Source: a virus. Taken from it: a stretch of 30,547 bases of DNA. The notes below the pieces were generated by a model. It was not told the DNA's origin, made no database searches, and worked only from the letters and a program-made list of their open reading frames with translations. The number at the start of each line of letters is the position of its first letter. The first letter of the stretch is position 1. Of this stretch, positions 15,606 to 30,547 are shown in pieces. Position numbers and translations under genes: made by a program. The stretch spans positions 1-30,547 of IMG/VR virus record IMGVR_UViG_3300034069_000443; one strand, written 5' to 3'.

Positions 15606-15674
15606 ATAACATAATAATTCATTCATCATCAGCCGCAGTATTTAATACTGTTGACTATATATTTCTTTAAGAAA

Positions 15675-15710
15675 AGCGACTAAGGATTAATTTTCCTAGT
15701 CGCTTTTTTT
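15675..15710. terminator. bidirectional intrinsic terminator closing the late operon
   Basis: GCGACTAAGGA / TCCTAGTCGC stem followed by T7 on the plus strand. On the minus strand the same stem is followed by TTTTCTT. Confidence 0.75.
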
Positions 15711-15740
15711 GTCTTTTCTTATACTAATTTAGGTAAAAGT

Positions 15741-16386
15741 ACTTTGGCCGTATTGACATCGACGCCTGAAAGGCGTATCAAACATAGGCACTAAGCAACG
15801 GCTTCGGCGCATAGTATCCCCAGTAAAAATTATTTAAATAAAAATTTATTTAACTTTACTGAGGAATACTATACATTATCAAACACAGTTTACTGAAGAA
15901 TCCGTATCCGTATGCCCTATTTATAGCCGGTATTCTACTACCGTATATATTGTTACGCGTCTTAATCCATGCCCTACGTATCGTATCATTACTGATACGT
16001 CTATATAATCCCGCCACTTTCGCAGCTGCTAGAATCGAAATCTAGCGATTAAACCTTACCCATTGTAGCTGATTTATCCGCTATTTCATCGCTAAGCGGA
16101 ATGGGCGTCGCTACATCTTCTACCCTTTAGGGGTTATATAGCTTGAAATAGGTACGCTGGTATAATCCCCGTGCATTTATTGCGGTGGCTGTACGAAACC
16201 CTAGGCGAAACTATTACAATCGCTTTCCTTTATATAGCGCTGGCAGCGCTTTATTTACTTAGTAAATAATTCCGGATCTGTTTTAAGCAGCTATCCGGCT
16301 AGCTGGCTGCATGATTCTATTTTTACCCTATGCAGCGGGGCAACAAAAAAAGCATAGCCCATAAGATATATTTTTAATATCTTAGC
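15741..16386. ncRNA. ORF-free, GC-elevated, hairpin-dense block; candidate large structured RNA (strand and ends unresolved)
   Basis: No ORF >=60 aa in six frames. Many short GC-rich helices. Candidate plus-strand promoters TTGACA-17-TATCAA (15753-15781) and TGgTATAAT (16158-16166). Confidence 0.25.
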
Positions 16387-16516
16387 TATGCTAAACAAGT
16401 ACCCTTTTTATAGAGTAAAAACAGTTTATATAGTTGCATTAACTACTGTTTATATGCTATAATAAATGTACAAACTAACAAGTTAAACAAGTGCTGTGGG
16501 GTACTTGTTTAGCATA
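16387..16516. repeat. 18-bp perfect inverted repeat flanking a 94-bp promoter-bearing spacer
   Basis: TATGCTAAACAAGTACCC (16387-16404) is the exact reverse complement of GGGTACTTGTTTAGCATA (16499-16516). Confidence 0.9.
16434..16463 (+). promoter_or_regulatory. sigma-70-type promoter with extended -10
   Basis: TTGCAT (16434-16439), 18-nt spacer, TGcTATAAT (16455-16463). Confidence 0.55.
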
Positions 16517-16560
16517 TGCCTTTCAATTCTACGTCAATAGAATCGATAGGCTTTTTTTTT
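16470..16560 (+). ncRNA. candidate ~90-nt small RNA
   Basis: Bounded by the promoter at 16434-16463 and a terminator at 16518-16560. No ORF. Internal 9-bp hairpin TAAACAAGT/ACTTGTTTA (16484-16511). Confidence 0.45.
16518..16560 (+). terminator. intrinsic terminator
   Basis: GCCTTTCAATTCTA / TAGAATCGATAGGC stem (2 mismatches) followed by T9 (16552-16560). Confidence 0.65.
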
Positions 16561-16766
16561 GCACTTTTTATTTATTATTGTGTAAAGATGTATCGTCTTA
16601 TACAAGATATTGAGTTACGAAAATCAATATCGTTATGTATATAATATCATTTCTATTTCATTTTGCCAATAAAATTATTTACGAAGCCTTTATCTAAGCC
16701 ATTAAATACACCCAATGGGCGTATAATTCAATAGTTATCTTTTATTTAAAAGATAAAACTATTAAG

Positions 16767-16798
16767 GAAAAAGCACCAGTATTTTATATGCTGGTGCT
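16767..16798 (-). terminator. intrinsic terminator (minus strand)
   Basis: AGCACCAG (16772-16779) / CTGGTGCT (16791-16798) stem, followed by TTTTT on the minus strand. Confidence 0.6.
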
Positions 16799-16825
16799 TA
16801 TCCTATATCTTTTTTGTACTCATCA

Positions 16826-16858
16826 TCATAATATATCTAATACTGGATAAAGTCAATT
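16826..16858 (-). promoter_or_regulatory. minus-strand promoter, repeat copy A
   Basis: Read on the minus strand: TTGACT (16851-16856) - 17 nt - TATTAT (16828-16833). About 33 bp are a direct repeat of 16964-16995. Confidence 0.5.
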
Positions 16859-16963
16859 ACGTTATGTATCTTTTATTTAATAGAATATATAGTAAGAGGT
16901 CAAGCCAGGATATTAAACCCTGGCTTGTAATCCCTTAATTTTATTACTATTTGTAACCCAACT

Positions 16964-16995
16964 TCATAATATATCTGATAATGGATTATGTCAAT
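16964..16995 (-). promoter_or_regulatory. minus-strand promoter, repeat copy B (overlaps the stop codon of the HTH gene)
   Basis: Read on the minus strand: TTGACA (16989-16994) - 17 nt - TATTAT (16966-16971). Confidence 0.5.
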
Positions 16996-17719
16996 CATCA
17001 TCTTTTAGCTTTTTCATAAACTTATCAATCTCTGATTTTGAAGGCGTTATATATATATTTTTATCTTCAAAATTATTCTTCTTATTCTTCCCTAGATTAT
17101 CAATACTATCGTCAAGCATTTCGGCGGCGTTTACAGCTTCTAATGCTTCGTCATTTTGATTGCCAAACAAATCTTTATACAGTAGATCCATGAAGTTATC
17201 GTTAGGATTTTCTTCTCCTAGTTTTTCGATTCTGTCTTTAAATCGTTTATCTTCTACTTCATTTACTAACCTAACATAGATACTTCTCATAACGTAACTA
17301 GGTGGAATTTCTAATCCCTTTTCTATGCGATCCAAAGTCCTTGCTGGCATGCGTAAGCTAATTGCTAATTCTTCTATAGTAAGACCTAACTCTTCACGCA
17401 AATCTATAATTTCAGGACTTCCCATTAATTGATATTCCAACTCTAAGACAACATCTAATACTAAGGCTTCGGTTAAACTATTATTACATTCATTTTCTAT
17501 TTTATAGAAAAGAATCCAAGTCTTATCATCAAAATCAAGATCAGGATCTTCCAAATCGTACTTTTGCATGACATCATGATTGTAAAACCATTGCGAGATA
17601 GTCCCGTCATAATTACGCGCTATCAAAATAACATCATCATCTTTTAAAATACGATTTGTATACTGTTTTAAAAGTTTAGTATATGCTGGATACGCTGTAC
17701 TTTCTATATTTAATTCCAT
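16991..17719 (-). CDS. XRE-type helix-turn-helix protein (candidate maintenance/lysogeny regulator)
   Basis: 242 aa. Central LREELGLTIEELAISLRMPARTLDRIEKGLEIPPSYV matches the XRE HTH pattern. Acidic C-terminus. Divergent from parA. Confidence 0.6.
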   Translation of the reverse strand: MELNIESTAYPAYTKLLKQYTNRILKDDDVILIARNYDGTISQWFYNHDVMQKYDLEDPDLDFDDKTWILFYKIENECNNSLTEALVLDVVLELEYQLMGSPEIIDLREELGLTIEELAISLRMPARTLDRIEKGLEIPPSYVMRSIYVRLVNEVEDKRFKDRIEKLGEENPNDNFMDLLYKDLFGNQNDEALEAVNAAEMLDDSIDNLGKNKKNNFEDKNIYITPSKSEIDKFMKKLKDDD

Positions 17720-17831
17720 AGCGCTAATCCCCTTTACTTAACACTAATAACTTATGTATATAACTATATTTTACATCAATTTCTATCAATAATAAACTTA
17801 TATATCTTTTATAAAAAAGATTCTTTATCTA

Positions 17832-17861
17832 TTTACAAAAAGACAAAATATATGTTATAGT
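17832..17861 (+). promoter_or_regulatory. parA operon promoter
   Basis: TTTACA (17832-17837), 18-nt spacer, TGtTATAGT (17853-17861). AAAAGGGGG RBS before ATG 17889. Confidence 0.5.
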
Positions 17862-17888
17862 CTAATTAATGGAAAAGGGGGCTAAATT

Positions 17889-18617
17889 ATGAGTATAGTC
17901 GCATTTATCAATCAAAAAGGCGGCGTCGGTAAATCATTACTAGCTTTTAATATTGGTATGTATTTATCATCTATTAAAAAAAAGAAAATACTGTTTGTTG
18001 ATTTAGACGCGCAAGCCACTTTAACGGATTTAACGATTCCGACGATAGACGTAGAATATACGTTATTTGATTTACTTAAAAGAAAGGGTACTGATCCGAC
18101 TAGTGCAATTATTAGTACGGATAACTTCGATATTATCCCTGGCGACATTCAAGTAGCTGGCTTATCGTCTAAGATTCAAAAGAATAGCTTATTAGATATC
18201 TTAAAAAGCATTAAGAAGAAGTATGATTATATTATCTTAGATTGCACGCCGTCTTTAGGCAGCATGAATATAGCAGCGCTATATGCAGCCGATACTATTA
18301 TTGGTATTGTGAAACCTGATATCGTATCGACTAGAGGATTACAATTACTATCGGATACGATTAGATCGGAAGTATCACAAAGAAGAAAAATAACCGCCGT
18401 TATCGTCAATCAATATAAGAAACGTAAGATATCTGAATTGACTGTACAACTCACGAAGCAAGATTATCCGTTATTGGATACCTTAGTACGCGATTCTTCG
18501 GCACTATCGGAAAGCGCTAGTATATCGCAATCAATCATAGAATATGGAAAAAATAATAACGGCTATAAGGACATCGAAGCCGTTACGGAAGAAATGTTAA
18601 GTAAGGGGATTTTATAA
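17889..18617 (+). CDS. parA: ParA/Soj-family partition ATPase
   Basis: Deviant Walker A INQKGGVGKS at the N-terminus, DLDAQ, IILDCTPSLG. 242 aa. Confidence 0.85.
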   Translation: MSIVAFINQKGGVGKSLLAFNIGMYLSSIKKKKILFVDLDAQATLTDLTIPTIDVEYTLFDLLKRKGTDPTSAIISTDNFDIIPGDIQVAGLSSKIQKNSLLDILKSIKKKYDYIILDCTPSLGSMNIAALYAADTIIGIVKPDIVSTRGLQLLSDTIRSEVSQRRKITAVIVNQYKKRKISELTVQLTKQDYPLLDTLVRDSSALSESASISQSIIEYGKNNNGYKDIEAVTEEMLSKGIL

Positions 18618-18618
18618 T

Positions 18619-19167
18619 ATGGCACGTATGGAATTAAATGAATATCCAAAATTAAAGCAAAAACAAAATAATAAGAAAAAGCCTAAGCGTAAAGCGATTA
18701 TCTTTAAGAAAAAGAATCCGAATCTAGGGCGTAAACCTATTTACGATAGCGCCGATGACGTTAAGAATGTAAATGGATTCTTCTACGTCGATGATTATGT
18801 TTATTTCTGTAACCTTGCCTATACGTTGCGTTACACTCAAATCATATTAGCTAATAAACTTTTTACTGATTTATTTAACTACTTACGAGATACTCATAAT
18901 ACTATCGATATTATGTTTTTAATTGGTATCGGTAAGGAAGGCAATAAAGATAATTGTGTAAAGAAAAATATTCGCCTATATAAAGATATCCATGAAGAAT
19001 ATGATACGTTACGCAAAACGTCGAAACGTACTATCGCCGATATCTTTAATTGCGCTATCGAATTATTTAGACACAATAATCCGGACTTCGAAATTATAGA
19101 AAATCCAAGAATCAATATTAACGATTTTAAGATTTTACCGATGAAAGGAAATTTCCGTACAAAATAA
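18619..19167 (+). CDS. putative centromere-binding partner of ParA (Lys-rich N-tail, RHH-like segments)
   Basis: Translationally coupled to parA (TAATATG). N-terminus KLKQKQNNKKKPKRK. Segment KKNIRLYKDIHEEYDTLRKTSKRTIADIFNCAIELF looks like strand-helix-helix. Confidence 0.45.
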   Translation: MARMELNEYPKLKQKQNNKKKPKRKAIIFKKKNPNLGRKPIYDSADDVKNVNGFFYVDDYVYFCNLAYTLRYTQIILANKLFTDLFNYLRDTHNTIDIMFLIGIGKEGNKDNCVKKNIRLYKDIHEEYDTLRKTSKRTIADIFNCAIELFRHNNPDFEIIENPRININDFKILPMKGNFRTK

Positions 19168-19255
19168 ATAGGTATATCATAATATACTATTTCTAATAAA
19201 TAGATATAAATATACGTTACTTTTAATAGATTTATCCAACAAAATACGAATGATT

Positions 19256-19310
19256 ATACAGATAGTAGACCAGCTTTTCTATGAAGCCAGGTACTATCTG
19301 TATTTTTTTA
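19256..19310 (+). terminator. intrinsic terminator after the par operon
   Basis: 12-bp arms ATACAGATAGTA (19256-19267) / TACTATCTGTAT (19292-19303) followed by a T-run. Confidence 0.65.
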
Positions 19311-19321
19311 TCTAAAATTAC

Positions 19322-19347
19322 TTCCGATACCTATACACTTATCGGAA
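19322..19347 (-). terminator. hairpin after the replication gene
   Basis: TTCCGATA / TATCGGAA 8-bp stem just 3' of the minus-strand stop at 19359. The minus-strand trailer GTAATTTTAG is only moderately T-rich. Confidence 0.4.
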
Positions 19348-19358
19348 ATTATAAATTA

Positions 19359-20951
19359 TTAGCCTTTAATAAGTCGTACATTGAAGACCTTCGCTAAATA
19401 AGAAATTGCTTCCCTAAAATTACAATCCTGTAACATCATCACGCAATTAATAATATCGCTTCCATGCCCTTCGCCGTAGCTTTCACAATCCGGATTAAAG
19501 CAATAATATCGGTAGCCTTCTTTTTCATCGCCGATGATATTGGCGGAATCGTTTGTATCATCATGGAAGATACAGTTAAATAATCCATGATCCGGTACGC
19601 CTAAGAAATCGGCTAGATTATAGCGCTTTACTAAATTCTTAAAAGTAGAGGACGTTAATTTCATACCATTAATAGTATCGTTTACTAGAAAAACAGACTT
19701 TTGACGAATTGCCTTAATGCGTTGGTTATTGATTTTAGATATATCCTTAGTTTTATGATTTTGTACGGCTTTAATAGTCATAGGATACATAGTTAGATAG
19801 TCATTACAAGCGGATTCGATATCGTCTTTGGATTCAGATAATTCATGTACGAAATCATCGATATCGTATCTTACATTATTAGAATCGAAGATAGTTACTT
19901 CGTATTCGTCATAGTCGCCCTTCTTCCATGTAGTACCTGGCATACGTAATACGCGGGCTTTATCGGATACGGCGGTATCGGCTATCTTAATAGTCCTAAC
20001 TAACATATCTTCGGCAGCTTGCCATAATTCGCCATTATTAATAGGGTTAATAGCCCATATACAATGATATCCATTACGCGTATCGGTAATTACAGTCGGT
20101 ACTAATGGAAGGCTATAAATAACTTCTAACATCGCTTCTTTACGTGCAGCGACTTCTTCTAAAGTAAAGTAATTACCTTCTTCGTCTTTACCAGCGTCGA
20201 TATCGATAAATAGATTCCGATACGTCGTAATATCAGACGCCCTACGCTTACCAGCTTTACGGGATTCATTCACTAAGAAGAATGTATTAATAGTATCGCC
20301 GAAGTGGTAGATATCGGCTTTCTTATTATTTAATACTAATTCATTGAAGACTGATAAATGATTAATAGTATCGTCATCTTCAGACAAATATTCAGTAGCT
20401 TCCTTATGGGTATGTATACCATATTGGCTATAATAAGCGTCGGTAAACATAGCGATTGTAGTATCGTCTAACTTTTTATCGATATCGGACTTAAATAACC
20501 AATATGCCAATGGCGTAATACTATAATTTAGCTGCATTACAGCCGGATTCACAAATATAGCCTCATAGGTTACATCGTTATTCGAAATCCATTTATTAAC
20601 CTTGAAGATATTAGCCTTCGTACATCTAGCAAAAAACTTTTTAAAGGCGTCTTTTTTCAAGCCTAATACATCTTGTAAATCAGCTTTTTTCATAGGTACT
20701 TGACGTCGATTAATCGGATCATAGCATTTTAATGTACTATCAGATTTTAAATGCGTGGATACAACTCTTACCAGCTTTAATATATCGCTGGTGGTTAATC
20801 CTTTACTTTCGAAGTCAAAGGCATAGTCTATACTGACTTTAGTACTAAACAACTTCGCGGACTGTAAACGCCCTTCATCTGTTACGTTTGTAGTTTTAGA
20901 TTGGTAATATTTATTATTGTCATCGGCATGGGTGAATATCACATTTTTCAT
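19359..20951 (-). CDS. replication protein: AEP primase-polymerase core with C-terminal CHC2 zinc finger
   Basis: AEP motifs LFIDID (I), TRNGYHCIW (II), RVLRMPGTTWKK (III). C-terminus CIFHDD...YYCFNPDCES..GSDIINCVMMLQDCNFREAISYLA matches DnaG-type zf-CHC2. No Walker A. Confidence 0.75.
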   Translation of the reverse strand: MKNVIFTHADDNNKYYQSKTTNVTDEGRLQSAKLFSTKVSIDYAFDFESKGLTTSDILKLVRVVSTHLKSDSTLKCYDPINRRQVPMKKADLQDVLGLKKDAFKKFFARCTKANIFKVNKWISNNDVTYEAIFVNPAVMQLNYSITPLAYWLFKSDIDKKLDDTTIAMFTDAYYSQYGIHTHKEATEYLSEDDDTINHLSVFNELVLNNKKADIYHFGDTINTFFLVNESRKAGKRRASDITTYRNLFIDIDAGKDEEGNYFTLEEVAARKEAMLEVIYSLPLVPTVITDTRNGYHCIWAINPINNGELWQAAEDMLVRTIKIADTAVSDKARVLRMPGTTWKKGDYDEYEVTIFDSNNVRYDIDDFVHELSESKDDIESACNDYLTMYPMTIKAVQNHKTKDISKINNQRIKAIRQKSVFLVNDTINGMKLTSSTFKNLVKRYNLADFLGVPDHGLFNCIFHDDTNDSANIIGDEKEGYRYYCFNPDCESYGEGHGSDIINCVMMLQDCNFREAISYLAKVFNVRLIKG

Positions 20952-20966
20952 AATTGGTATCTCCTA

Positions 20967-21248
20967 TTAGTGCTTAAATTGGATATGTTTAATATCTGTA
21001 AGATATTCGATAGAATCTTCACGCTTTTCTCTTTCCTTTAAGCCGCGCGCGGTGTAACAACTGTATTCGGTACGATTCTTAATATCGGACTTATTATTTC
21101 TATCCTTGAAATACAGGCTATCTATAATAGAATCGTATTCATAAGAGTTATTAGCCCTTGAAAGGAAGCCGATAATTTCAGCTTCCGTATAGTTTTCATG
21201 ACTTAAAAGAGTATTAGCGAATTTTAAAGTATTAACATTACTTTCCAT
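20967..21248 (-). CDS. hypothetical early protein
   Basis: 93-aa ORF in the early operon. Start overlaps the upstream stop. Confidence 0.45.
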   Translation of the reverse strand: MESNVNTLKFANTLLSHENYTEAEIIGFLSRANNSYEYDSIIDSLYFKDRNNKSDIKNRTEYSCYTARGLKEREKREDSIEYLTDIKHIQFKH

Positions 21249-21504
21249 AGTGTAAATGCCTTTCGAATTGAATTAATGCGTTATGATACACGCCGTTAAG
21301 AGTGGATTTTGTAATACCTAACATAGTAGCTACTTCAGCTTGTGTATAACCTTCGATACAGATTTTTTCTAAGATAAATTGATGACGTGGCTTTAATTTA
21401 TGTAATGCTGCTTCTATATCGATTAGATATCCGACGACTTCGATATTATTCGTTGCGCTTGCTTTTAACTGGCTATACAAACTTATTACCTTCTTAGAAT
21501 CCAT
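21238..21504 (-). CDS. sigma-70 region-4-like HTH protein (candidate late-gene activator)
   Basis: LKPRHQFILEKICIEGYTQAEVATMLGITKSTLNGVYHNALIQFERHL resembles sigma region 4 / phage late activators. Confidence 0.55.
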   Translation of the reverse strand: MDSKKVISLYSQLKASATNNIEVVGYLIDIEAALHKLKPRHQFILEKICIEGYTQAEVATMLGITKSTLNGVYHNALIQFERHLHYGK

Positions 21505-21671
21505 TTATTCATACCCTTTCTGATTGCTTTCACTAAGTATTTAACGACGATAATTCCGATGTACAGGCTTAAAAGGATATGAAGGGCAGTAACGAATGTA
21601 TTCCATAGCATTAATGCTAATATCGCGCATACCATATAAAAGATTTCTTCATTTCTAATTAGTTTTTCCAT
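21486..21671 (-). CDS. small two-helix membrane protein
   Basis: 61 aa, two hydrophobic stretches, basic C-terminus. Overlaps both neighbours, which suggests translational coupling. Confidence 0.4.
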   Translation of the reverse strand: MEKLIRNEEIFYMVCAILALMLWNTFVTALHILLSLYIGIIVVKYLVKAIRKGMNKWILRR

Positions 21672-22263
21672 TTGTAACCGCCTTGTAAACTACCTCATAA
21701 TTATCTAATTTATATTCACGTATCATAATTCCTAAATCCCGTAGCAGCTTACGACTAACTATCTTTACTTTGGATTGATATAGTAGCTTCTTATGCTTGC
21801 CGTAACTGTATGTATTCGTAATTAATGTCTTAACGCTGGTATCGTCTTTAATCGATTCAGCGTAAGCCCTAAAGGCTTTTCCGTCGTAGACATAACATCG
21901 ATTTAATTCAGGGAAGACGCTAAATATGTAATCTGCTTCCGTAACCAGCGCCCAACCTTTGGTATTCGTATTTATATTACTTACGACTTCGATACATTGA
22001 TTGGAATATTTAGAATTATCCGTCTTAACTTCGATAAGTGATTCATTACTAGTAAGGATCGCTTTTACGTCGTTTGATTTAGATAATTCGTATGACGTAG
22101 TGAAATCGACGTCGATACTTCTAAAAGCCGGCGTATCACATTTAAAGACGTCTTTACCTTGCTTCGCCTTTAAATAATTCTTAACCCAGGATTCGCCATA
22201 ATCACCAAGTACTACATCTTGCCGGAATGACTTAGATAATTGTGAAATCGTTGTATTATTCAT
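21655..22263 (-). CDS. first early gene; possible PD-(D/E)XK-fold nuclease
   Basis: Start moved to the second ATG (22263), which has GAGG 6 nt upstream. IDVDF ... LIEVKTD spacing resembles a D...ExK nuclease core. Confidence 0.35.
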   Translation of the reverse strand: MNNTTISQLSKSFRQDVVLGDYGESWVKNYLKAKQGKDVFKCDTPAFRSIDVDFTTSYELSKSNDVKAILTSNESLIEVKTDNSKYSNQCIEVVSNINTNTKGWALVTEADYIFSVFPELNRCYVYDGKAFRAYAESIKDDTSVKTLITNTYSYGKHKKLLYQSKVKIVSRKLLRDLGIMIREYKLDNYEVVYKAVTNGKTN

Positions 22264-22359
22264 GCTGTACCTCATTCTGCTAAAAAGAAGACAAAATTTT
22301 TAATATAATAAAGCGTCATCGATTAACGCTTTCATAAGTTATATTACCTAGTTAGTCAT

Positions 22360-22394
22360 CTTATATTGCAAAATTTTTCATGTATGCAAAATTG
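22360..22394 (-). promoter_or_regulatory. candidate early promoter with two TGCAAAATT repeats (operators?)
   Basis: On the minus strand: TTGCAT (22384-22389) - 18 nt - TATAAG (22360-22365). Direct 9-mers TGCAAAATT at 22367-22375 and 22385-22393 overlap it. Confidence 0.35.
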
Positions 22395-22711
22395 ATATAT
22401 TATACTATTAAATTGCATTTAATGAATAATACAAGTATCGCGCTACAAATCGGCACGATATTATTCGCATTAACTGGCATTATCTATATAAAATTCTCTA
22501 CGTTTACAGTATACCATACTTAGCAACTAAAAAAAAGATAAGTATTTGACTTTTTGATTAATTTACAGAAAAATAGCTATTCTTTTCTTTTAAGCCGGTA
22601 TAAAGTCAGGCTTAAAAGGAAAGCAGCTATTTTATGGGGTACGGATTTTAAATGTATTTGTAACTGGATCATCAACGTCATAGCCGCCGGAAAAATACTT
22701 CAGCTGCAAAA

Positions 22712-22860
22712 CTACATATCTTATATTAGTGTGGATTTGTAATAAATTTTCTAAAAAAGTCAGTATTTATCTATGTTTATCGGCTTTTAGGTGGGGTATG
22801 ATTTATACCCCTTTTACTATCGAAAAGGGTACGAATCGTACCCCTTACATTGTATACAAT
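22712..22860. repeat. 149-bp repeat, copy 1
   Basis: Aligns without length change to 22998-23146. Contains TGTGGATTT, hairpins GGGGTAT-gattt-ATACCCC and GGGTACG-aat-CGTACCC, and the palindrome ATTGTATACAAT. Confidence 0.9.
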
Positions 22861-22997
22861 TAAAATCTGATATCTAATCCGGCGGCTATCTTCTTCTTTT
22901 AAGCCTATGGATTAACCTCTACCAATAGTATTACCAGCTACGATATTATTATTGACTACGGCAGCTAGAATATTTTTTAACAGCCGTAATTACAAAT

Positions 22998-23146
22998 CTA
23001 CATATCTTATATTAGTGTGGATTTGTATAAAATTTTCAAACAAATGCAGTATTTATCTATGTTTATAGCGTTTTAGGTGGGGTACGAATCATACCCCTTT
23101 TGCTACCAAAAAGGGTATCATTTATACCCTTTACATTGTATACAAT
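22998..23146. repeat. 149-bp repeat, copy 2
   Basis: First 30 nt are identical to copy 1. Hairpins GGGGTA-cgaatca-TACCCC and AGGGTAT-cattt-ATACCCT. Same terminal palindrome. Confidence 0.9.
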
Positions 23147-23151
23147 CTAAT

Positions 23152-23280
23152 TATACATATATCGCCGCCATTATTCTTATCAGATATTTAATCTAAACTA
23201 AACACAAAAGCCGTACTTTTAATACACTTAGTACGCTTATATATTGAAGGGATACATAACAATATACATATATCGCCGCC
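23152..23280. repeat. 18-bp direct repeat pair TATACATATATCGCCGCC
   Basis: Perfect copies at 23152-23169 and 23263-23280. Confidence 0.85.
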
Positions 23281-23412
23281 GATAACTTTTTTAATCACAT
23301 TTTCATTATCAGTATTATCATTAATAGATATAGATATATAGTATGTACTACCTTCAAAAGAGAATCCTCATACTAGGAAAATGCTAATATTTAAAAACCT
23401 CCTATTAAAGAA

Positions 23413-23477
23413 ATAACTTACCTTCTATTTAAGCGGTTACTCCTTACGCTAATAAATACAAGGTAGGTTATTTTTTT
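23413..23477 (+). terminator. intrinsic terminator in the leader of the late operon
   Basis: 12-bp arms ATAACTTACCTT (23413-23424) / AAGGTAGGTTAT (23460-23471, one G-U) followed by T7. Ends 16 nt before the HNH start. Confidence 0.55.
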
Positions 23478-23492
23478 ACCGATTTAAAAATT

Positions 23493-26312: not shown

Positions 26313-26333
26313 TTTATCTATTAATTAAAAGAA

Positions 26334-27557
26334 ATGGATTTTATGAGTACTGAAAAAATTAAAGACTTACTATCTAACACCGAAACAATGACATTCCTAG
26401 ATTTCTTTTCTGGGATAGGTGGATTTCATTCAGGACTAGAAAAAGCAGGAATGAAATGTATAGGCTGGTGCGAATTTGATAAATTCGCCCAAAAATCTTA
26501 TAACGCAATGTATGATACGGAAGGATTATATTTTAGTGATGACATTAGAAAATGCAACGGAAAAGAATTACCAAAATCAGATTTATGGGCCTTTGGATTC
26601 CCATGTCAAGATATCTCAATCGCAGGAAACCAACGCGGAATTAAAGAAGGTACAAGATCCGGACTCTTCTTCGAAGTTATGCGACTTCTTGACGAAATCG
26701 AAAACCCCGAAGATAAACCCAAATGGCTTATCGCTGAAAATGTTAAAAACTTACTATCAATCGATAAAGGACACGGATTCTATACCGTACTTAGTGAAAT
26801 GGCAAAGCGAGGGTACACTTGCGAATGGAAAATTTACAACACAAAAAACTACGGACTTCCTCAAAATAGAGAAAGAGTGTACATTATTGGATATTATGGA
26901 AACCCAGGTACCAGAAGCCTACTACCTAAACCAAGACAAAGTAAATCAACTCTTAACCAGATTATCCCTGGACACCAAGGAAACCGAGTTTACGACGCCG
27001 AAGGAATAGCCCCAACATTAATGGCACAAGGCGGTACACAAACTTCCTTGTATAAACTTCCTTCTAGTGGTATCCATAACTTCGGAAAATCTTCAGCATA
27101 TGAAAATAATAATACTGTATGGGCAACTGGTAACGCGCGTACTTTAACAGCTTCCGACTATAAACACGTACCCCAAGTAGCCGTACAGATTAAAAACGCT
27201 ACTGATAAAGGTTACGTCGATACTTATATCGGCGACGGAATCGATTTAAGTTACGTTAATTCAAAGACTAAACGCGGAAGGGTACAACCTCAACAAAGTC
27301 AAACCCTAACAGTTAGCGGAAGTATCGGCGTACTTGTAAATACTGATCCGATTCAAATTAGAAAATTAACACCTAGAGAGTACTGGCGATTACAAGGATT
27401 TACAGACGCCCAATATGACGCGGCCGCAGAAGTTAATTCTAAAAGCCAATTATATAAGCAGGCTGGAAATGCTGTTACTGTAAACGTCGTAGAAGCTATC
27501 GGAAATCATATCGTAGAAACAAATCAACATTTATTAGATGATTTGTCTATTAATTAA
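26334..27557 (+). CDS. DNA (cytosine-5)-methyltransferase
   Basis: Motif I FLDFFSGIGG, IV GFPCQDIS, VI AENVKNL, VIII QNRERVYIIG, IX RKLTPREYWRLQGF, X YKQAGNAV. Start could be 26343. Confidence 0.9.
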   Translation: MDFMSTEKIKDLLSNTETMTFLDFFSGIGGFHSGLEKAGMKCIGWCEFDKFAQKSYNAMYDTEGLYFSDDIRKCNGKELPKSDLWAFGFPCQDISIAGNQRGIKEGTRSGLFFEVMRLLDEIENPEDKPKWLIAENVKNLLSIDKGHGFYTVLSEMAKRGYTCEWKIYNTKNYGLPQNRERVYIIGYYGNPGTRSLLPKPRQSKSTLNQIIPGHQGNRVYDAEGIAPTLMAQGGTQTSLYKLPSSGIHNFGKSSAYENNNTVWATGNARTLTASDYKHVPQVAVQIKNATDKGYVDTYIGDGIDLSYVNSKTKRGRVQPQQSQTLTVSGSIGVLVNTDPIQIRKLTPREYWRLQGFTDAQYDAAAEVNSKSQLYKQAGNAVTVNVVEAIGNHIVETNQHLLDDLSIN

Positions 27558-27574
27558 AAGAAAGAATATAAACC

Positions 27575-29558: not shown

Positions 29559-29608
29559 AGTACTATTTTTTCTTTTATTTAAAAGATGAAAGGCACATAA
29601 TGGCAAGA

Positions 29609-30547
29609 ATTGACGAAATTAACGCCCGAAAAGTTGAAATCCGTAGTCTTATCGATTCCGCGGATATGGAAACTTTAAAAGCATTTCAAACTGAATTAGC
29701 TAGCCTCAACGAAGAAGCCGAAGAATTACGCGCCCGCGAAGAAGTAGCTAAACAATTAGAAACTAATAACAATCTAGGAAATTCTATTAATTTAAAAGGA
29801 CAACACGAAATGACAAATCCAACATTCGAATCTCAAGAATATCGTTCCGCTTTTATGGAATATGTAACTAAAGGTACTGAAATTCCTCAAGAATTTCGCG
29901 CAGCTGCTACATCTGTAACCGCAGATAACTACGCCGTAATCCCTACGACTGTACTTAATGAAATCGTAACTAAACTAGAAGCATACGGCGATATCTTGCC
30001 ACGCGTACGCCGTGTATCTTATCCCGCTGGTGTAACTGTACCGGCTTCCGCTACTAAATTCGAAGCAGTATGGCAAAATGAAAACGCTGTAGGCGATTCC
30101 CAAAAGATGACAACTGCTTCTATCTCCTTTACTGCTTATCAACTTCGTTGTAACGCTGGCGTATCCTTCCAAATGGACGTACGCAGCCTTGCAGCCTTCG
30201 AATCCGCATTAGTTAAAAATGTAGTCGACGCTATGGGTAAAGCACTAGAAAAAGCTATCGTATCCGGTACTGGCGTAGGTCAACCGACTGGCATTACAGC
30301 AGCTACACCAGCAGCAAAAGTAGACGCTACAGCTTGCGACTATGCGACTTTGGTAAAAGCAGTAAAAGCCGTACCGACTGCATATAAAAAAGATTTTGTA
30401 TTTATTATGAATGAAGGTACAGCCCTTAACTTCGCTACTATGGTAGACAAAAACGGACAACCTATTATTAACGCTGGTATCGTGCAAGCCCCTCAATATC
30501 GCTTCTTAGGTCATGACGTAGTATTAACAGACGCTTTACCAGACTTC
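29609..30547 (+). CDS. major capsid protein, N-terminal part (continues at 1-333; start uncertain)
   Basis: The frame is open from 29600 to the window end and continues into 1-333. N-terminal coiled-coil region (..LKAFQTELASLNEEAEELRAREEVAKQLE). First in-frame starts are TTG 29609, TTG 29633 and ATG 29666. The RBS-linked ATG 29599 is in another frame. Confidence 0.8.
   Translation, partial: MDEINARKVEIRSLIDSADMETLKAFQTELASLNEEAEELRAREEVAKQLETNNNLGNSINLKGQHEMTNPTFESQEYRSAFMEYVTKGTEIPQEFRAAATSVTADNYAVIPTTVLNEIVTKLEAYGDILPRVRRVSYPAGVTVPASATKFEAVWQNENAVGDSQKMTTASISFTAYQLRCNAGVSFQMDVRSLAAFESALVKNVVDAMGKALEKAIVSGTGVGQPTGITAATPAAKVDATACDYATLVKAVKAVPTAYKKDFVFIMNEGTALNFATMVDKNGQPIINAGIVQAPQYRFLGHDVVLTDALPDF
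30407..30547. repeat. 141-bp terminal overlap identical to 1-141 (circular closure)
   Basis: Base-for-base comparison of both ends. Confidence 0.95.

Follow-up and report, generated by a model that had tools for sequence, protein, structure and literature searches.

The sequence analyzed here, IMG/VR virus record IMGVR_UViG_3300034069_000443 (30,547 nucleotides; the whole of it is called the window), is the genome of a contractile-tailed phage. Between the lysis genes and the early operon, three functions that would normally serve a plasmid appear to be clustered: a gene pair for a ParA-type ATPase and a small partner protein, a gene for a replication protein (Rep), and a palindrome resembling the chromosomal dif site of the putative host. 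The positions of these and of the other features are given in Table 1. As argued below, this phage probably persists as a plasmid and not as an integrated prophage, a reading drawn from comparison of sequences.

Table 1. Features of the window discussed in the text (aa, amino acids; nt, nucleotides; HTH, helix-turn-helix; ORF, open reading frame).
Feature	Position	Strand	Description
throat-1 RNA gene	15918-16250	-	Rfam RF03110, full-length match, 361.6 bits against a gathering score of 124.4
HTH_3 gene, 242 aa	16991-17719	-	HTH_3 at E 1e-4, below cut-off; accessory regulator
parA promoter and two overlapping palindromes	17804-17861	+	TTTACA-18-TATAGT with upstream TG at 17832-17861 (promoter scan)
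parA	17889-18617	+	small partition ATPase with deviant Walker A motif; AAA_31 at E 1.2e-33, phrog_164 "ParA-like partition protein" at E 1.4e-48
partner gene	18619-19167	+	182 aa; Lys/Arg-rich N-terminal tail, uncharacterized helical body; presumed centromere-binding protein
terminator of the parA-partner operon	19256-19309	+	long hairpin followed by T7; kept in all par-clade relatives
dif-like site	19320-19349		ACTTCCGATAC, 8-nt center, TTATCGGAAAT; just past the rep stop codon; candidate dimer-resolution site for host Xer
rep	19359-20951	-	winged-helix N-terminal domain, AEP primase-polymerase core, C-terminal CHC2 zinc finger
early operon	20967-22275	-	upstream of rep; products of 93 aa, 88 aa (sigma70-r4-like HTH), 61 aa and 206 aa; also in the integrase clade; contains protospacer 22026-22065
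ORF-poor region with two 154-nt direct repeats	22276-23492		candidate origin; conserved at the DNA level in the par clade only
C5 cytosine methylase gene	26334-27557		flanked by 22-nt direct repeats (26313-26334 and 27542-27563, 95% identical)

The deduced ParA is a protein of 242 aa in which the AAA_31 domain spans residues 1-160 and the deviant Walker A motif KGGVGKS occupies residues 10-16. It has no N-terminal HTH or other DNA-binding domain, as is characteristic of the small ParA proteins of type Ib partition loci, and the solved structures nearest to it were Soj/ParA proteins and pSM19035 delta. A preliminary description of the window had reported a ParA with this motif, translationally coupled to its neighbor. 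The family matches agreed with the former, and the spacing of the two genes agreed with the latter: the parA stop codon TAA lies at 18615-18617, the ATG of the partner gene begins at 18619, and a ribosome-binding site (AAGGGG) is located within the 3' end of parA.

The same description had credited the partner with a Lys-rich N-terminal tail and with segments of the ribbon-helix-helix (RHH) type. The tail was found, and the RHH-like segments were left unconfirmed: the protein matched no Pfam or PHROG family, a Pfam search at E<=10 with all partner homologues returned nothing relevant, and an AlphaFold2 model built from an alignment of eight rows had a pLDDT of 40, too poor for a fold search. 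The nearest neighbors in a protein language model (ESM) were of the CopG/ParG/Arc/RHH type (0.87-0.91), which serves as a lead only, and one distant homologue gave a weak match to RHH_7 (E 0.023). The family is small, with six representatives among 1.84 billion in an exhaustive profile search, and tblastn found no counterpart of the partner on plasmids. Two distant relatives have no adjoining parA, and their alignments begin at profile position 30, the first ~29 residues that make up the basic tail being missing. This pattern fits, without proving, a tail that may be dedicated to ParA.

The palindromes overlapping the parA promoter are of the type ATCTTTT-N4-AAAAGAT, which is strongly enriched in the window: three exact copies were found against 0.02 expected, and 11 copies against 0.87 when up to two mismatches were allowed. 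Five of the 11 lie between 16.7 and 18.0 kb. The position of the pair 5' of parA is kept in two relatives (L002 and L050), neither of which has the HTH gene. We regard 17804-17861 as the best candidate for a combined centromere and operator, at which binding of the partner would be expected. In the known type Ib loci, TP228 ParF/ParG and pSM19035 delta/omega, a small ParA without N-terminal DNA-binding domain is likewise followed by a short 3' partner with a flexible, basic N-terminal tail, and repeats are found in the parA promoter. The present partner differs from ParG and omega in its length, which is about twice theirs, and in the absence of detectable membership of an RHH family; its binding to a centromere is predicted. 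The region with the 154-nt repeats is more simply read as a candidate origin. Rep also differs between the clades described below, and a centromere role of this region is neither supported nor excluded.

Rep was assigned to the AEP primase-polymerases on the basis of motifs and fold. D250 and D252 (DxD), the segment T291-R-N-G-x-H296 (with G294 and H296) and D325 were invariant in 28 homologues and reproduce the catalytic DxD, sGxH and downstream Asp motifs of this family; a C-terminal Cys/His cluster was also common to the 28. The AlphaFold2 model (pLDDT 77) was matched by Foldseek to 6zp9 (E 8e-4) and to 3h20 and 3h25, at probabilities of 0.99-1.00. These are the AEP domains of cyanophage S-2L PrimPol and of RSF1010 RepB', which share the catalytic motifs as well. 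Unlike these two proteins, the phage Rep carries an additional N-terminal domain, whose model showed weak likeness to winged-helix initiator domains, and a DnaG-type CHC2 zinc finger, and it has no helicase domain. With 19.7 bits against a cut-off of 24.3 bits, the Pfam match to RepB_primase makes it a distant member of that family at best; the match to Zn_ribbon_DnaG was likewise below its cut-off. The motifs and fold bore out the AEP protein proposed in the preliminary description. Its description as self-contained was not borne out, because the phage encodes no helicase. Homologues of Rep were found in 51 plasmids and in none of 50,697 phage records, and the best plasmid match was to pSRC5 (87% coverage, E 2e-38). 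The window thus combines an initiator of plasmid type with partition genes, as phage-plasmids do.

The window was searched against 121 representative Veillonellaceae genomes, the host genomes of this comparison. Its positions 19301-19358 matched one palindromic locus per genome, with the structure ACTTCCGATAA, a 7-nt center and TTATCGGAAGT, the 11-nt arms being perfectly symmetric. The locus was present in 105 of the 121 genomes, was single-copy in 104, and lay at 48.6-51.4% of the chromosome from dnaA in 4 of 4 closed genomes (examples are G034:C1:1070673-1070699 and G055:C1:1694911-1694937). Because of its copy number and its position opposite dnaA, it is taken to be the dif site of Veillonella; it also resembles the dif site of Bacillus subtilis. 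The one paper on dif and Veillonella returned by literature searches concerns a Haemophilus inovirus. In one genome (locus L074, G118:C6:230105-233159), unlike the others, a 334-aa ORF (1557-2558 of the locus) with a tyrosine-recombinase-like C-terminus starts ~20 nt after dif, which may mark an element that inserted at dif and brought a recombinase of its own.

The arms of the phage site agree with those of the host dif at 10 of 11 positions on the left and 10 of 11 on the right. A site of this kind follows the rep stop codon in every relative of the par clade, with invariant arms and a variable center, which is 1 nt longer than that of the host dif in all five sequence variants. The dif-like site was absent from the integrase clade and from pSRC5. 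A replicon without a recombinase of its own needs a means of resolving dimers, and in ColE1 cer and pSC101 psi this need is served by a dif-like core whose center differs in length from that of the chromosomal site. The likeliest role of the phage site is therefore plasmid dimer resolution by a host enzyme of the Xer type, whose action is predicted from the likeness of the sites. The situation differs from that of cer and psi in the host dif itself, with its perfectly symmetric 11-nt arms and 7-nt center, and in the failure to find a canonical XerD above cut-off in five host genomes. The latter hints at a non-canonical, possibly single-recombinase, Xer system in the host.

No enzyme of integration was detected. 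All 41 ORFs of at least 50 aa were compared with Pfam, and those without assignment with PHROGs, and no tyrosine or serine recombinase and no DDE transposase was seen; six-frame searches with PF00589, PF00239, PF07508 (large-serine "Recombinase") and PF00665 (rve) gave nothing at E<=1. The absence of recombinase motifs noted in the preliminary description was thus upheld, and no recombinase domain that would contradict plasmid persistence came to light. The lack of an integrase and of a transposase, which is one mark of a phage-plasmid, supports that mode of persistence.

Another mark is a full set of genes for virion, packaging and lysis, and the Pfam and PHROG scans of the 41 ORFs yielded a complete myophage set. 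It comprises packaging and head genes (HNH, small and large terminase (TerL), portal, S78 protease, HK97 capsid, connectors), tail genes (sheath, tube, XkdN-type chaperone (TAC), tape measure, YqbQ-like protein, baseplate J, fibers), and genes for a holin-like protein, an amidase and a C5 methylase. Packaging is of the cos type with HNH and TerL, the contractile tail is of the XkdN/PBSX type, and the head is of the HK97 type. Bases 1-141 of the record are repeated directly at 30407-30547, and IMG/VR classes the record as DTR (direct terminal repeat) and 100% complete, which gives a closed unit of 30,406 bp. Together with the virion genes, this confirmed the closed, PBSX-like myophage genome of about 30.4 kb that had been described. 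One public sequencing run, possibly that of the source sample, contains the element in one contig of 30,416 nt that has neither joints nor loose ends. This was the sole run with this DNA among the non-human public runs covered, and no RNA run with it was listed. It is labeled "plant metagenome", whereas the relatives and the throat-1 RNA indicate an oral Veillonella host; the label says little on habitat. The major capsid gene spans the artificial ends of the record (29600-30547 continuing at 142-333), and the ORF listed at 1-333 is the 3' part of the capsid gene.

The relatives of the window fell into two clades with different maintenance genes. Those with a Rep 68-97% identical (the par clade) all carry parA and the partner gene and no integrase. 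Their contigs, of 23.5 to 30.2-30.4 kb and from at least five separate assemblies, were never joined to host DNA, and every contig examined crosses the rep-par junction and the dif-like site intact. In the sister clade (Rep 52-54% identical), an integrase of PF00589 takes the place of parA and the partner gene. Members of this integrase clade lie inside host contigs of 175, 307 and 311 kb, adjoining a tRNA gene. In Veillonella intestinalis DSM 110113, the prophage measures 29.9 kb, with a perfect 48-bp repeat of the 3' end of tRNA-Thr at its borders, and this attachment (att) repeat is situated 174 bp past the homologue of the last lysis gene. The block at 15606-19358 of the window (3.75 kb, with the throat-1 RNA gene, the HTH gene, parA, the partner gene and the intergenic sites) occupies the exact slot of the integrase gene and att, and the rest of the two genomes is collinear. 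A search of the 121 genomes with Rep returned the prophage of the integrase clade only, and no isolate with a par-clade element.

A more distant counterpart is known from a cultured strain. pSRC5 (NC_017074.1), a circular 35,182-bp plasmid of Selenomonas ruminantium TAM6421, has the same order of modules: lysis genes, parA with a small partner gene, rep, early genes, HNH-TerL-portal-protease-capsid, and contractile tail. Matches to 25 of the 41 window proteins were obtained by tblastn (Rep 26%, ParA 27%, TerL 40%, sheath 48%, amidase 56% identical), and no integrase is annotated. The two elements differ in several respects: pSRC5 is distant (26-59% amino-acid identity) and larger (35 kb), its rep lies on the strand of the late genes, and it has neither the throat-1 RNA nor a dif-like site of the Veillonella type. 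Megablast with a 25-kb portion of the window matched nothing among the plasmids of PLSDB or the phages of INPHARED, and literature searches returned nothing relevant on throat-1, on pSRC5/NC_017074 or on phage-plasmids of Veillonella or Selenomonas.

Among the classical phage-plasmids, P1 has ParA/ParB/parS, RepA and Cre-lox, and N15 has SopAB, RepA and a telomere resolvase; in Firmicutes, such elements occur in the Bacillus cereus group and in C. difficile, and relatives of TerL were found on phage-plasmids of these types. Like them, the window represents a tailed temperate phage with no integrase, its own initiator and ParA-type partition, for which plasmid inheritance is deduced. It differs in being far smaller (30 kb), in its AEP-type initiator, and in a small, type Ib-like ParA with an orphan partner instead of a type Ia ParA with an HTH-containing ParB. 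Where P1 and N15 have a Cre-like or telomere resolvase, a mimic of the host dif is found.

On the basis of these results, we propose that after infection this phage would circularize and become a low-copy plasmid in a Veillonella-type host. Rep would act as a plasmid-type initiator and prime replication at the nearby origin, with the helicase and polymerase of the host. Partition would be effected by the type Ib-like pair of the small ParA ATPase and the 182-aa partner, the body of which presumably binds the palindromes of the parA promoter and the basic tail of which presumably stimulates ParA. At the dif-like site after rep, the chromosome-dimer recombinase of the host would resolve plasmid dimers, and for that reason the phage would need no recombinase of its own. 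The preliminary description had arrived at extrachromosomal maintenance from gene content. This is now supported by evidence independent of gene content, namely the synteny with pSRC5, the exchange of modules with the integrase clade, the par-clade contigs that were never joined to host DNA, and the dif mimic beside rep.

Several observations weigh against this proposal. A par-clade element was present as a plasmid contig in 0 of the 121 representative genomes, all par-clade sequences are metagenomic, and assembly of a lytic phage caught in replication would likewise give a free circle of 30 kb. The partner belongs to no recognizable DNA-binding family. A CI/Cro-type switch was not recognized in the Pfam and PHROG scans, and the one HTH_3 gene is accessory. 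In five host genomes, no canonical XerD was found above cut-off (TIGR02225, NCBIfam), only sub-threshold tyrosine recombinases, and the dif-like palindrome may also function as the terminator hairpin of rep, or be nothing more than that hairpin.

Some of these points are shared by the view that the phage is strictly virulent or only pseudolysogenic, so that ParA, its partner and Rep would act in lytic replication or in positioning the genome, without the element ever being stably inherited. The unrecognized switch and the restriction to metagenome contigs agree with this view, and the depth and contig data are just as compatible with a free phage. Its close kin are temperate, however: one is integrated as a prophage, and another resides in an isolate as a plasmid; the module with par, the dif-like site and throat-1 lies in the exact slot of the integrase gene and att, and homologues of Rep occur on plasmids and not in the phage database. 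We therefore consider a virulent phage very unlikely. The existence of the dif-like site also means that integration by host Xer, named in the preliminary description as a result that would overturn its reading, must be weighed. CTXphi-type elements insert at the host dif using the host recombinase, and an element exploiting Xer in this way (IMEX-like) would need ParA and Rep for a transient or replicative form only. A site in non-coding DNA with arms nearly identical to those of dif, in a phage without integrase, is what would be expected of it. With its longer center in all variants, the site is better suited to recombination of two identical copies of a plasmid with each other than with the chromosome, and no insertion at dif was seen: the host site was single and uninterrupted in 104 genomes, Rep of the par clade was found in 0 of 121, and the par-clade contigs cross the site intact. 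Moreover, an integrated element would have no need of a dedicated partition pair or of a plasmid-type Rep, and the sister clade that does integrate has an integrase and a tRNA att and no par genes. Integration at dif is thus improbable.

A narrower objection is that the palindrome is only the terminator of rep and its likeness to dif coincidental; the element would still be a plasmid-phage, one without a dedicated site for dimer resolution. The hairpin does follow the rep stop codon directly and is itself followed by a short T-run. Against a simple terminator, one arm resembles the host dif arm over at least 13 nt and the other over 9-11 of 11, and in one relative (L034) the site is only one substitution and one inserted base from the host dif. 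No compensatory stem changes accompany the pattern of invariant arms and variable center, and the dif-like pattern is found at a single place in the window, as it is in each host genome. A terminator alone seems unlikely, and we retain the reading of a plasmid with a candidate resolution site.

Two further genes lie in the block that replaces the integrase gene. The throat-1 RNA was also found in the par-clade relative L002 (13512-13848, 370.7 bits) and was absent from the integrase clade and from pSRC5, indicating that it travels with the par module. The 242-aa HTH gene was present in L048 and absent from L002 and L050; because two par-clade relatives do without it, it is accessory and not part of the core maintenance genes. 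The locus singled out in the preliminary description (16991-20951) thus contains this accessory gene beside parA, the partner gene and rep. Tandem chromosomal paralogues of this gene (73% DNA identity) occur at L085 (G073:C9:206-1549) and at G048:C32:109754-111047, in a defense island, next to genes for a D12 methyltransferase, for a DUF6996/6997/7226 protein and for AIPR (abortive infection). With D12 methylase and AIPR as neighbors, the homologues offered no hint that the protein acts as a repressor. Tentatively, and short of calling it probable, the block 15606-19358 (throat-1 RNA with an antisense partner, parA, partner gene and dif mimic) might be a self-sufficient "plasmid-lifestyle cassette" interchangeable with the integrase/att cassette, such that a swap switches the lifestyle. 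The throat-1 RNA would then act in maintenance or copy control, and dimers would be resolved by a non-canonical, possibly single-recombinase, host Xer system.

The host is, as judged from a CRISPR spacer, the Veillonella-type arms of the dif-like site and tail-fiber identity, most probably an oral bacterium of the Veillonella type. The spacer, in Veillonellaceae genome G108, matches window positions 22026-22065 at 38 of 40 nt, inside the 206-aa early gene, and lies in an array (L079, G108:C20:6720-8759) of at least 24 repeats with the repeat start ATTGCAATAGTACCTACCG. Most short DNA matches (25-40 nt) to host genomes lie outside CRISPR arrays, the one in G108:C20 being the sole match inside. 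The tail-fiber segment 11126-11596 is 87% identical at the DNA level to a chromosomal locus or prophage of another Veillonellaceae genome (G064:C1:263925-264395), far more than the 65-70% found elsewhere. This suggests that the receptor-binding module may have been exchanged recently. Relatives have no C5 methylase gene between TerL and portal; in them, a Mom-like gene separates HNH from the small terminase instead, and the methylase gene has the appearance of an anti-restriction moron that has been swapped.

Although phage-plasmids as a class are established, our searches of the available literature turned up none from Veillonella or from any other of the Negativicutes. The collinear phages compared here differ essentially in one cassette, an integrase with a tRNA att in one clade and parA, the partner gene, the dif-like site and the throat-1 RNA in the other. 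They form a natural comparison that makes the genetic requirements of each lifestyle directly testable. The orphan throat-1 RNA gains a genomic home and a testable role. In addition, a dif site is defined for Veillonella, and candidate parts for replication, partition and resolution become available for this abundant oral genus.

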